64,000 nucleotides of DNA from NCBI GenBank assembly GCA_963831935.1, contig CAWHSH010000001.1:128389-192388 (forward strand). The letters are read 5' to 3'. The notes under the pieces were generated by a model. It searched no databases, was not told the DNA's origin, and saw only the letters and a list, made by a program, of their open reading frames with translations. Of this stretch, positions 2,739 through 11,503 are shown piece by piece. Each line of letters opens with the position of its first letter. Positions within the stretch are counted from its first letter, which is position 1. The stretch comes from an uncultured Bacteroidales bacterium. GTDB lineage: Bacteria > Bacteroidota > Bacteroidia > Bacteroidales > VadinHA17. A program made the translations under genes and the position numbers.

Positions 2739-3391
2739 ATGATTAACCAGACTTTTTCACGAAGAGAATTTGTAAGGCTTTTTACGGGAGGAACAGCCGC
2801 AGTGCTCATCTCCTTTAATACTGCCTGCAGGAATAAAATCAGTCAGTGGCGTTATCTCAATGAAGAAGAAATTACTCTGCTTGATGCAATTGTTGAACAG
2901 ATAATTCCAACGGATGATTTTCCGGGTGGGAAATGGGCCAATGTGTCAAATTTTATCGATAAGCAACTTGACACATATTACAGGAAACATCAGCTTGCAT
3001 ATCGTGAAGGTCTTGCTGCCTTTGAAAAAACTGTAATTCAAATGAAGGGTAAAAAGTTTGAAGAACTTCCTTTCTGCAGAACAGACGGCAATGCTTGAAA
3101 AGATGGAGACGGGAGAATTCTCCGGTGATTATTGGAAGGACCACCCTCCGGCTGAGTTTCTTTGACATGGTAAGGCAGCATTCCTTGCAGGGTTTTTATG
3201 GAAGTCCTGTTCACGGAGGAAACCGTGAATATATTAGCTATCGTATGCTCGGACTTGATTATCCTAATGTTATCGGACAAAACAGGTACAATGATTTAAG
3301 CTGGCGTAAATACAATCCTAAATCTCCGCGAAAATGGCAAATAAACATGTTAATGCGGTTGTGGTCGGTGCAGGAGCAGGTGGTGGAGTAG
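2739..3391 (+). pseudogene. Gluconate 2-dehydrogenase subunit-3 (gamma)-family small Tat subunit; frame broken about twice
   Basis: Tat signal SRREFVRLFTGGTAAV. The protein continues in three frames: ...FEELPF | EQTAMLEKMETGEFSGDYWKDHPPAEF | FDMVRQHSLQGFYGSPVHGGNREY. The last segment is the family-typical GFY..P..GGN motif. Breaks lie near 3070 and 3150. Confidence 0.65.
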
Positions 3392-4987
3392 TAGCAAAGG
3401 AACTCGCTATCGGAGGTCTCACAGTGGTGCTCTTTGAACGTGGAAGATGGCATACCTTCGACGAACACGGGGATGATGAACTGACTTCCCAACGGACTTT
3501 TCCTCTCAAATGCGGTTATGGTCCGGATAATGAGCGCAACTGGAGAATGGCTCCTGATGGTAAAAATGGATGGATAAAGGTTTTCCCGAACCAGTGGAGC
3601 TACGGAAATAATGCTGCCTGTGTCGGCAGCGGAACAGTCAGTTATGGAGCAATGGCCTGGAGATTTCAGCCTGAAGACTTTCATCTTAAAACCAAATATG
3701 GTGCAGTACCAGGCAGCACCCTTGATGACTGGCCTTTGAGCTATGATGAACTGGAACCTTATTATGAGAAAGCTGAATATGAGTTAGGTGTGGCCGGCGA
3801 TCCGACAAATGATCCTTACGTACCGCCCAGAAAGAATCCTTATCCTATGCCTGCCTTTTCGTTTAACAGGGAAGGAATCATCCTTGAAAAGGCTGCAAAA
3901 AGACTGGGTTTGCATCCTTTTCCAATTCCCATGCTGCGAAATTCAGTGCCATATAACGGTCGTCCTGCCTGTATCCGCATGCGAACATGCGTAGGTTATG
4001 CCTGTCCTGTGGGCGCCAAGGCCGGTACACAGAATACTGTAATTCCTGTTGCATTAAAAACGGGAAATTGTGAACTCCGGATAAACTGCATGGTCAGTGA
4101 AATAATAGTCGACGAAAGAGGTAAGGCTAAAGGAATTAAATACTTTGATGCAGATAATAAGCTGCAGGTACAAACTTCAGACCTGGTAGTTGTGTCAGCT
4201 TCCGCCAGTGAAACTGCAAGGCTTCTGTTAAATTCCAAATCAAAGTTATTTCCCAGCGGAGCAGGTAATAATAATGGCTGGGTAGGCAAGAATATCCAGG
4301 ATCATGCATATACTGGAGCTTATGGCCTTTTTGAGGATGAAGTGTATGATGATGTTGGCCCGGGTGCCTGTATAGCAATAAATGATTTCAATCATCGCTT
4401 TCCTGACGTTATCGGAGGCGGGGTATTATGTAACGAATTTATTCGAATGCCATATCCAGTTTACCTCAATACGCCCGTCAGGCAGCAGGATGTGGGGAAA
4501 GGAACATAAAGATTTTCAGAAGCGTAATTTTAAAAGACATATCGGCATACATGGACCTGTACAGGAAATGCCGGTATTTGACAAAATGGTTGAGGTAGAT
4601 CCTGTTGTCAAGGATTTCTGGGGAATACCTGTTGCCCGGATTAGTGGATTAAGGCACGATAATGATATTAAAGTAGGACATTTTCTTGCTGATAAAGCAG
4701 AAGAATGGCTAAAAGAAGCAGGGGCCATTTATACATGGCAGGCTGTTCCCGGTAAGCAGAGTACTCCCAGCCAGCATCAGAGCGGGACCTGTCGCATGGG
4801 CAATGACCCAAAAACCTCCGTAACCAATAAATATGGTCAGTTGCATGAAATCGATAATATCTTCATTGCCGATGGCAGCCTTCATGTGAACAATGGCGGA
4901 TATAACCCTGCACTTACCATACTTGCTCTTGGTTATTGGGTTGGAGGCCATATTACGGAAAAGTGGAAGAGGACAAATATGAAGTAG
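3334..4987 (+). pseudogene. GMC-family FAD flavoprotein dehydrogenase (large subunit); one frameshift near 4440-4460
   Basis: N-terminal VVVGAGAGGGVVAKELA dinucleotide fold. C-terminal GTCRMGNDP...IFIADGSLHVNNGGYNPALT is the GMC signature. ORFs 3334..4509 and 4382..4987 overlap in different frames. Confidence 0.8.
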
Positions 4988-5037
4988 TCGAACTGATTCC
5001 TGAACCCGGTTTTTGAATTTAAAGAATACCTGGCCAA

Positions 5038-6096
5038 ATGAAAAAAATATTAATTATTAGTTCAATTCTCATCCTGTTTGTTGTTGCATTGCTTGTTTCT
5101 TACTCTCACTGGAATGCAGCTTCGCCGGCAAAAACCTGTGCGAGCTGTCATGAAATTTCACATTCAGTAGACCTGTGGGCAGAGTCGACGCACAGGAACA
5201 TAGCTTGTAAGGATTGCCACGGTACTGCCCTGAGTGAAGGAATGCACAGTCTGAAAGAAAAGGGAGCAATGCTTTTTCATCATTCCGGCAAAATAAAGCC
5301 TGACGAGGTAATAATTTCCGAAGCTCAACGTCTGGAGGTGATGCAAAGGTGCATAGGCTGTCATCAGACAGAGTATGCCAAATGGAATTCAGGCGGGCAT
5401 GCCATAAACTACTCCGAGGTCTTTTTAAATCCTGTTCATAACAAAGCTGAAACCATTTATGACGATTGTCTCCGTTGCCATGGTATGTTTTATGATGAAG
5501 GCACCGTTGTTAATATTGTCGAACCACTCGATACTGCGGGTCCCTGGAAATTAAAGGATGTTAGCCTCGCAGATCGTCCCGCAATTCCTTGTTTTGCCTG
5601 CCACCAGACTCATCAGCCGGGCTATCCCGGAATAAGACAGAATCTCGAAACACCTGCTTCCCTGCATTATTCAAGGGTGAAAAAAACACTTACCTCATTC
5701 TATTACAGACGCGATAATATGTATTTTCCTGTTTTATCGCTTTCTTCTCAGGAGATAACTTACAGGTCAGTGCCGGTTAAAATTTCACAGGATCCTAATC
5801 AGAGCTTGTGCATTCAGTGCCATTCACCCAATGCATTCAACATGGCAGGTACGTCTGACGATCGCACTCCCAGGGGAGTTCATGAAGGGATAAGCTGCCT
5901 GGCATGTCATGATTCACATTCCAACTCAGCAATAGCTTCCTGTAAAAACTGCCACCCCGCTATTTCCAACTGCAAACTGGATGTGGAGAAGATGAATACC
6001 ACCTACAAAGACCAATCAAGCATAAATAACATTCATTTTGTTGCATGCACAGACTGCCATACTAAGGGAAGACCCACTAAACGAACTAATCCATAA
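5038..6096 (+). CDS. Membrane-anchored nonaheme c-type cytochrome with a NapC/NirT-like N-terminus
   Basis: N-terminal TM helix ILIISSILILFVVALLVSY. Nine CxxCH motifs in the translation: CASCH, CKDCH, CIGCH, CLRCH, CFACH, CIQCH, CLACH, CKNCH, CTDCH. Confidence 0.8.
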   Translation: MKKILIISSILILFVVALLVSYSHWNAASPAKTCASCHEISHSVDLWAESTHRNIACKDCHGTALSEGMHSLKEKGAMLFHHSGKIKPDEVIISEAQRLEVMQRCIGCHQTEYAKWNSGGHAINYSEVFLNPVHNKAETIYDDCLRCHGMFYDEGTVVNIVEPLDTAGPWKLKDVSLADRPAIPCFACHQTHQPGYPGIRQNLETPASLHYSRVKKTLTSFYYRRDNMYFPVLSLSSQEITYRSVPVKISQDPNQSLCIQCHSPNAFNMAGTSDDRTPRGVHEGISCLACHDSHSNSAIASCKNCHPAISNCKLDVEKMNTTYKDQSSINNIHFVACTDCHTKGRPTKRTNP

Positions 6097-10703: not shown

Positions 10704-11503
10704 CTACATGGAGATTATTTCCAGTTTCTTTCCTTCTGTCTGTTCATAAAGCTGCCTGGCCATCTCGGCCTTGTCATGGCTGAAAGAAGGATCCATGGAA
10801 TAAGCTTTCATATACGATTCATAGGCTTTGTCGTATTTCTTGATGTACATATAGTAATCTCCCTTTGAGTCGTATACGTTCGGATTTTTCGGTTCAAGCT
10901 CAATGTATTTGTCGAAGGCCTCTTGCGCTTTATCGTTCTGCTTTAGTGTCAAATATGCATATCCGAGCTGATTGTAAAAGGGTGCCGGATTTGTGGCAAT
11001 TTTAATTGCCTTATTTAAAGTTTCAACCATACCGGTAGAATCGCCTGCAAGTGATTGAAAATAAATCAGGTTATTATATGAATTGGGATCATTCGGATAC
11101 ATTTCCACAAGCTTTTTCCCCAGATCGGTAACATTTGTAGTGACCCTGTTTTACGCTTACCAGAGCATCTTTCAGAATCTCCTCAGCATCACTGAGTTTA
11201 GCTTTGCAATTTATTGCTGCATCAGCGTACCTGTTCAAAATCATCAGGAGCCCGGTTCAGAAGGTAATAAAATGCCAGCTGGTAATTAACCATGAAAAAA
11301 TCAGGGTCCTGATCAAGAGCTTTTTTAAAAGTTTCAAGTGCTTTATCCAGCTTAACTTCATCAAAGTATTTCATGGCCTGGTTGTAAATCGTCAATGCTG
11401 ATTTAGAATTCGTGGTTACAGGCATCAGCTTTACTTTCGCAGGCTGGGAATATATCATTATCCCTATTGAAATCGATATCATTGCCAGAAACAATTTTTT
11501 CAT
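10704..11503 (-). pseudogene. TPR-repeat secreted protein; frame broken at least twice between 11108 and 11222
   Basis: ORF 11222..11503 gives a signal peptide plus TPR-like helices. ORF 10704..11108 gives TPR repeats (AYLTLKQNDKAQEAFDKYIELEPKNP...). The 114-nt gap between them reads through only in a third frame. Confidence 0.6.

Follow-up and report, generated by a model that had tools for sequence, protein, structure and literature searches.

In the 64,000-nucleotide (nt) stretch of DNA analysed here (the window; positions 128,389 to 192,388 of contig CAWHSH010000001.1 from an uncultured Bacteroidales bacterium, assembly GCA_963831935.1), three genes on the + strand encode, in this order, a small subunit with a twin-arginine translocation (Tat) signal, a GMC flavoprotein and a nine-haem c-type cytochrome. 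On balance, their sequences suggest that the three genes probably specify one periplasmic respiratory dehydrogenase, in which electrons would pass from the substrate to flavin adenine dinucleotide (FAD), to a 3Fe-4S cluster, through the haems and into menaquinone. The enzyme class, that of the gamma-alpha FAD dehydrogenases, is a known one, and what is new is a nine-haem subunit in the place of the trihaem class-I cytochrome. The full-text literature searched, references on glucoside 3-dehydrogenase included, yielded no account of a GMC dehydrogenase that is paired with a multihaem cytochrome of the NrfH-like kind. The three genes and the two parts of the cytochrome are as follows.

2739 to 3344, + strand: small (gamma, "hitch-hiker") subunit, about 200 amino acids (aa) with three inserted bases ignored, PF13618 on both fragments
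3334 to 4987, + strand: GMC catalytic subunit, 550 aa with one inserted base ignored, PF00732 and PF05199
5038 to 6096, + strand: nine-haem c-type cytochrome, 352 aa, intact, nine CxxCH motifs
5038 to 5487, + strand: signal-anchor helix (residues about 2 to 27) and NrfH-like tetrahaem module (C34, C57, C105, C144) of the cytochrome, from AlphaFold2, Foldseek and TIGR03153
5488 to 6096, + strand: five-haem C-terminal extension of the cytochrome (C185, C258, C287, C302, C337), with weak Pfam similarity to cytochrome c7, c3 and NrfB-like families

An earlier note on this DNA had placed the three genes at these coordinates, and they are found there. In the Pfam profile search of the window proteins, which the note had proposed as a check, the open reading frames (ORFs) 2739-3098 and 3095-3391 both match PF13618 (Gluconate_2-dh3), GMC_oxred_N (PF00732) is found in ORF 3334-4509 with 54.5 bits and GMC_oxred_C (PF05199) in ORF 4382-4987 with 69.8 bits, the latter two over the cut-off; these matches identify the small subunit and the GMC subunit. 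ORF 5038-6096 bears out a cytochrome of 352 aa with nine CxxCH motifs and an uninterrupted frame, and profile searches with class-I cytochrome c families give no match for this third gene. The pairing of gamma and alpha subunits of an FAD dehydrogenase with a different electron-exit subunit, as the note had proposed, is supported by the nine-haem third gene and by the synteny described below.

Aerobic Proteobacteria are the known hosts of three-subunit FAD dehydrogenases, enzymes that find use in biosensors because their cytochrome allows direct electron transfer; the same heterotrimeric class includes gluconate 2-dehydrogenase, sorbitol dehydrogenase and glucoside 3-dehydrogenase. The FAD-dependent glucose dehydrogenase of Burkholderia cepacia (BcGDH, gamma-alpha-beta; 6A2U, 8HDD) and fructose dehydrogenase (7W2J) share with the window the gene order of a Tat small subunit followed by the GMC subunit, a GMC subunit that lacks a signal, the three-Cys 3Fe-4S motif, the catalytic His/Asn pair and a c-type cytochrome gene in third place. 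Their trihaem class-I cytochrome is unrelated in sequence to the N-anchored nine-haem protein with its NrfH-like head. Compared with the BcGDH type, the small subunit here is lipoprotein-like and a Ser replaces His105; the hosts also differ, the BcGDH type occurring in Proteobacteria and the present one in this anaerobe and in many metagenome-assembled genomes (MAGs) of Bacteroidota and Ignavibacteriota.

The small subunit is colinear with an intact orthologue (locus L017) and carries the twin-arginine motif SRREFV at residues 7-12 (nt 2757-2774), followed by a lipobox-like Cys30 (nt 2826-2828) at the end of the h-region. Of the 61 ORFs listed, among which are a few GMC fragments, 51 have an RR motif, and a Cys closes the Tat signal in most small-subunit orthologues (FNTAC, LSRC, LAGC and similar). 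Judged by these motifs, the small subunit is probably a Tat-exported lipoprotein, a character that, to our knowledge, has not been described in those proteobacterial gamma subunits that have been characterised.

The GMC subunit itself lacks a signal peptide and begins MANKHVNAVVVGAGAGGG, straight into the Rossmann motif. Its closest solved relatives, BcGDH and fructose dehydrogenase, are about equally distant from it: in phmmer searches, the orthologue P0122 matches the BcGDH alpha subunit (6A2U_B) over residues 15-546 with an E-value of 1e-46, and the large subunit of the Gluconobacter fructose dehydrogenase (7W2J_A) with an E-value of 7.5e-42. The catalytic His/Asn pair of BcGDH aligns in the GMC subunit, and a Ser stands at the position aligned with BcGDH His105, the proposed covalent-FAD ligand. 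The loop RPACIRMRTCVGYACP is aligned to RPTCCGNNNCMP-ICP of BcGDH, such that its three Cys match Cys212, Cys218 and Cys222, which in BcGDH hold the 3Fe-4S cluster that relays electrons from FAD to the cytochrome subunit (PMC6719666). The codons of these residues, Cys213, Cys219 and Cys224, are intact in the window (3970-3972, 3988-3990 and 4003-4005, respectively).

In the cytochrome, the CxxCH motifs at residues 34, 57, 105, 144, 185, 258, 287, 302 and 337 are all invariant in 59 homologues. Nine additional His are conserved (H52, H70, H82, H121, H134, H192, H282, H294 and H333), seven of them invariant and the other two, H70 and H134, present in at least 90% of the 59 sequences; these nine conserved distal His are sufficient for nine bis-His haems. 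The AlphaFold2 model, with a predicted local distance difference test score (pLDDT) of 74.9 and a predicted template modelling (TM) score of 0.70, places residues 2-27 in an N-terminal helix with pLDDT above 90, and four CxxCH motifs lie within about 150 residues after this membrane helix. The remaining five haems form the C-terminal extension, which is presumed to be a wire towards the flavoprotein.

The fold of the N-terminal part points, weakly, to NrfH. Foldseek matches in the PDB are NrfH chains only, the best being 2J7A_C (probability 1.00, E-value 0.053, TM 0.51 normalised by NrfH, 108 aligned columns), and a search of the PDB by sequence, profile and fold found no solved relative of the whole cytochrome, NrfH being the best match, weakly. 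The TIGR03153 (NrfH) profile spans residues 6-114 with 48.8 bits (cut-off 134.2), and PF03264 (NapC/NirT) gives 19.1 bits (cut-off 24.1). The NapC/NirT-like spacing of the first haems, noticed earlier from the sequence, is thus real but weak, falling short of the curated thresholds for both NapC/NirT and NrfH. Lys75 (codon 5260-5262) is invariant in the 59 sequences, and the family profile aligns it with Lys82 of NrfH (2J7A_C) in a weak alignment (E-value 0.0016). Lys82 of NrfH hydrogen-bonds the inhibitor HQNO (2-heptyl-4-hydroxyquinoline N-oxide) and is the counterpart of CymA Lys91, a residue required for the interaction with menaquinol (PMC2762525).

The cytochrome therefore resembles NrfH (2J7A, 2VR0), NapC/NirT and CymA in its single N-terminal helix, in its four closely spaced CxxCH motifs and, by the weak alignment, in the Lys at the place of NrfH Lys82 and CymA Lys91. 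Apart from its sub-threshold scores, it differs from the NrfH family in its haem-1 motif, which reads CASCHEI with an invariant E39 and lacks the NrfH-specific Met of CxxCHxM, and in the five extra haems that are fused to the tetrahaem module. Its presumed partner is a flavoprotein dehydrogenase instead of a reductase, and the direction proposed for it is quinone reduction.

The gene order found in the window is conserved. Neighbourhoods were counted in the best 80 homologous loci, whose hosts are fen, peat and soil Bacteroidales, Prolixibacteraceae (among them one cultured carrier, Draconibacterium mangrovi GM2-18, locus L061), Paludibacter, Cytophagia, Chitinophagaceae and seven Ignavibacteriota. 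All 80 loci have a GMC gene on the same strand upstream of the cytochrome gene, and in 79 the two are directly adjacent; in the sole exception, a Prolixibacteraceae MAG (L096), a gene of glycoside hydrolase (GH) family 95 at 3547-5904 stands between them. The small-subunit gene precedes the GMC gene in every locus whose contig extends far enough. The same three-gene order occurs on a Verrucomicrobiota contig with a 39% identical cytochrome, so that the synteny about which the earlier note had asked is obligate across these loci and reaches beyond them, and a 33% identical cytochrome is also preceded by a small-subunit gene and a flavoprotein fragment.

The cytochrome and the adjacent GMC protein diverge in parallel, their pairwise distances being strongly correlated (r = 0.91), a value reached by 0 of 999 permutations in a Mantel test. 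In G007, a short-read peat MAG of the same genus, a single ORF of 728 aa (L013:4440-6626, identical to L023) encodes both the small subunit and the GMC subunit, a natural fusion that supports a physical association of the two. Taken together, the synteny, the correlated divergence and the fusion argue that the three products may form a physical complex. Five loci (L069, L079, L087, L062 and L095) contain two GMC genes, in tandem in L069 and L079, with one small subunit and one cytochrome, which suggests that several catalytic subunits share one electron-exit subunit. Scans for sigma-70 promoters and terminators revealed nothing in the 50-nt gap before the cytochrome gene that would give it a promoter or terminator of its own, with fewer sites than in shuffled controls, although such scans are uninformative here, Bacteroidota promoters being outside their coverage.

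Other neighbours recur in no more than 12 of the 80 loci: the commonest are Tat-type Gfo/Idh/MocA proteins (12) and an esterase (10), followed by short-chain dehydrogenase/reductase, xylose-isomerase-like, major facilitator superfamily (MFS) and GH92 proteins (4-6 each). Because no fourth neighbour is conserved, the three genes constitute a self-contained module. Likewise, no conserved accessory gene that would reveal the substrate is present among the 80 neighbourhoods. The carbohydrate-related genes near some copies (Tat-type Gfo/Idh/MocA, xylose-isomerase-like, GH92, GH95, MFS) are loose hints only; the GH95 gene inside the L096 unit is one such hint for that copy. A GMC-class relative, the acetol dehydrogenase GmcAB of Methylacidiphilum fumariolicum, oxidises acetol (bioRxiv 10.64898/2026.06.11.731722), which calls for caution against assuming a sugar substrate here. 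GmcAB resembles the present system in its Tat small subunit and GMC subunit, in an Fe-S site near the subunit interface and in a cytochrome acceptor. It differs in having four Cys (CxxCxxCxxxC) and a [Cu-4Fe-4S] cluster, compared with three Cys here, and in using a soluble cytochrome, cGJ, as acceptor and a non-sugar substrate (bioRxiv 10.64898/2026.06.11.731722).

In the proposed mechanism, the small subunit, with its twin-arginine signal and probable lipid anchor, would carry the folded, signal-less GMC subunit through the membrane via the Tat pathway. The flavoprotein would then oxidise an alcohol- or sugar-type substrate at FAD, and the electrons would pass to the surface 3Fe-4S cluster. 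From there, the five C-terminal haems may relay them to the NrfH-like tetrahaem head, which the N-terminal helix would hold at the membrane, the cytochrome standing in for the trihaem subunit of the proteobacterial enzymes. Menaquinone would be reduced at this head, an NrfH/CymA-type module working in the quinone-reducing direction, with fumarate reductase or cytochrome bd as the possible consumers of the quinol so formed. Genes for cytochrome bd subunit I, for a b558-type cytochrome b subunit of fumarate reductase/succinate dehydrogenase and for a CcsBA-type cytochrome c maturation protein are present in the genome. NrfA is not found in the genome, which indicates that the NrfH-like module is not part of a nitrite reductase.

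Between the two exits that the earlier note had considered, the menaquinone pool and an extracellular or alternative acceptor, the tentatively NrfH-like fold and the invariant Lys back the former, and the neighbourhoods lend no support to an extracellular acceptor. The cytochrome might nevertheless be a membrane-tethered haem wire to soluble cytochromes, humic substances or Fe(III) instead of a quinone reductase, which is considered unlikely. Nine low-potential-type bis-His haems exceed the needs of a simple quinone reductase, the protein has weak Pfam similarities to MtrC/MtrF-like and c3/c7 families, its similarity to NrfH is below threshold, and many carriers are, by name, MAGs from fen, peat or soil, where such acceptors are plausible. 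However, none of the genes beside the module in the 80 loci is conserved, be it for a porin-cytochrome conduit, an outer-membrane cytochrome or anything else, quinol sinks are present in the genome, and the invariant Lys at the quinone position of NrfH and CymA, in combination with the membrane helix, is best explained by a quinone site.

A flow in the opposite direction, in which the NrfH-like module would oxidise menaquinol and the flavoprotein would act as the terminal reductase for a periplasmic oxidant, is highly improbable. The biochemically studied members NrfH, NapC and CymA are all mainly quinol dehydrogenases (PMC2762525), and in a genome that lacks NrfA an NrfH-like protein needs another partner. 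The characterised Fe-S gamma-alpha GMC enzymes all donate electrons to cytochromes, however, as established for BcGDH (PMC6719666) and fructose dehydrogenase, and the acetol dehydrogenase is likewise an electron donor to a cytochrome (bioRxiv 10.64898/2026.06.11.731722). The energetics point the same way.

Alcohol/carbonyl couples generally lie well below menaquinone, so that carbonyl reduction by menaquinol would be uphill. Several observations nonetheless weigh against a complex that reduces menaquinone. NapC/NirT-type proteins normally oxidise quinol, and the quinone-reducing direction is put forward on thermodynamic grounds and on one precedent, cytochrome cM552 of Nitrosomonas. This member of the NapC/NirT family would pass electrons from hydroxylamine oxidation via c554 into the quinone pool; it would share with the present cytochrome a NapC/NirT-type module that reduces quinone with electrons from a periplasmic dehydrogenase, and differs in belonging to another enzyme system, in being tetrahaem only and in having its carrier, c554, as a separate protein instead of a fused extension. 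The cytochrome of the window also shows a weak Pfam similarity to the Cytochrome_C554 family. The confidence of the structural model is moderate (pLDDT 74.9) and weakest around K75, the Foldseek E-value against NrfH is no better than 0.05, and the scores of the cytochrome stay under the curated cut-offs for both PF03264 and TIGR03153. Neither of two distant homologues, which are 35-38% identical and lie on short contigs, adjoins a GMC gene, and a Cyclobacteriaceae MAG holds a close GMC/small-subunit pair without the cytochrome, from which it follows that the flavoprotein can use other acceptors.

The dehydrogenase genes of the window are interrupted by frame breaks. In comparison with three intact orthologues, to which the window DNA is 88-92% identical in nucleotides, the only length differences are four single extra bases, so that the three breaks counted in the earlier note are actually four, each a +1 insertion.

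3075, + strand: insertion 1, extra T, from DNA alignment to three intact orthologues
3154 to 3159, + strand: insertion 2, extra G or T at about 3156, placement ambiguous in GAGTTT, from DNA alignment to orthologues
3325, + strand: insertion 3, extra T, from DNA alignment to orthologues, missed in the earlier note
4454 to 4457, + strand: insertion 4, extra C in TATCCAG (about 4456), from DNA alignment to orthologues

The insertion at 3325 changes the last small-subunit codons only and shifts the stop from its orthologous place, 3342-3344, to 3391, and insertion 4 cuts the GMC gene into the ORFs 3334-4509 and 4382-4987. When the four bases are ignored, the small subunit has 200 aa and ends ...ENGK* as in the orthologues, the GMC subunit has 550 aa, and there are zero internal stops. 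Besides the insertions, the dehydrogenase genes show zero stops, deletions or substitution decay, and the ratios of nonsynonymous to synonymous substitution rates (dN/dS) against L017 are 0.30 for the small subunit, 0.08 for the GMC subunit and 0.20 for the cytochrome.

Other genes of the assembly are affected as well. The rpoC gene, outside the window (G000:C14:231159-235324), is split into frames of 983 and 464 aa, and since this gene is essential, its break indicates genome-wide errors of assembly; of about 20 unrelated orthologues compared, 3 are also split over two frames. Two further split genes in the genome contain one insertion and one deletion, a sample too small for an inference on insertion bias. 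Among the 80 loci, frame breaks in operon genes are confined to MFD-named MAGs with "contig_" contig names (L028, L046, L058, L072 and L078), taken as long-read assemblies from the style of naming. In two of these, L028 (about 4017-4039) and L046 (about 3955-3983), independent one-base insertions fall in the same stretch of about 10 nt as in the window (3067-3080, CTTCCTTTCGCAGAAC), and all short-read MAGs are intact at this place. The shared stretch looks like the site of a sequence-context-specific consensus error. Programmed frameshifting was rejected: the orthologues are mostly in a single frame, the position of the inserted base varies by MAG, and there is no slippery site.

The uniform +1 insertions, the low dN/dS values, the split rpoC and the confinement of breaks to long-read-style MAGs together make it quite probable that the four insertions are consensus errors of the assembly, in which case the operon is probably functional in the organism. 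If the insertions were real, the dehydrogenase pair would have become a pseudogene only very recently, leaving the cytochrome as an orphan or in use with another partner, which seems unlikely. Real decay could likewise produce four breaks clustered in 1.4 kb beside at least 6 kb of intact genes, and this clustering, with some 6 kb of flanking genes and the cytochrome gene unbroken, counts against a functional operon; a genome of the same genus (G006) moreover holds all three genes in a copy interrupted by in-frame stops. Against such decay stand the absence of any damage other than +1 insertions at a GMC dN/dS of 0.08, the similarly split rpoC and other orthologues in this assembly, and the recurrence of independent insertions within the same 10 nt in L028 and L046, where short-read MAGs are intact. 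Furthermore, the genome contains no second intact copy of the small-subunit/GMC pair, its other GMC match (on contig C14) being unrelated to the GMC clade of the window. The earlier note had also allowed for the pair being a dead remnant in all related genomes; it is intact in nearly all relatives.

Two damaged copies occur elsewhere. In the G006 copy (L016, G006:C8:1-9000), the cytochrome gene contains four TGA and one TAA in frame, the three genes as a whole show several frame changes and no more than 36-65% identity, and this region is either truly decayed or very poorly assembled. In the short-read Paludibacter MAG (L062), the GMC copy that is additional to the operon and lies downstream of its cytochrome gene is broken over several frames.

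The cytochrome has 2167 homologues at an E-value of 1e-3 or below among 3505 scored word-sharing candidates from a set of 5.8 billion proteins, and those that are named in databases are called "hypothetical protein" or "multiheme c-type cytochrome". Scanning a single genome for each species gave at least 544 confirmed matches. In a library of 1.84 billion representatives, an E-value of 1e-30 or below is reached by only 59 clusters at 50% identity, which indicates that the family is narrow and distinct. The module is patchily distributed: of 400 genomes sampled evenly across the phylum, 1 has it, and 24 genomes of the genus contain two intact copies and one decayed copy.

As a tentative but possible wider role, the module may be a respiratory entry point through which anaerobic and microaerophilic members of the Bacteroidota, Ignavibacteriota and Verrucomicrobiota that live in peat, soil and sediment oxidise glycan-derived sugars or other alcohols in the periplasm and pass the electrons directly into menaquinone via a new class of NrfH-derived nine-haem quinone reductase. 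If this is true, supposed fermenters would obtain energy by respiration from carbohydrates that they oxidise without taking them up, and the oxidation of substrates in the periplasm would count among the electron sources so far overlooked in Bacteroidota of peat and soil. The nine-haem NrfH-like version would extend the FAD-dehydrogenase family to menaquinone-based anaerobes and would be the second clear case of a NapC/NirT-type module acting as a quinone reductase. A long natural haem wire on a flavoenzyme may also interest bioelectrochemistry, and the cultured carrier D. mangrovi GM2-18 makes the module testable.

Upstream of the small subunit, the neighbouring genes in the window include an esterase gene and the following two features.

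2 to 463, - strand: RpiB/LacAB-like protein with a signal-like N-terminus, upstream flank
576 to 1502, - strand: RraA-like/aldolase-fold protein with a clear twin-arginine signal, upstream flank

Both would be periplasmic versions of enzymes that are normally cytoplasmic. Downstream of the cytochrome, a LytTR/histidine-kinase gene pair lies on the opposite strand, and genes for a beta-lactamase-family protein (+ strand), a cupin (+ strand) and a GH2 protein (- strand) follow further downstream. Two neighbouring short ORFs with similarity to tetratricopeptide repeats, 10704-11108 and 11222-11503 (both - strand), may be a single gene with a broken frame.

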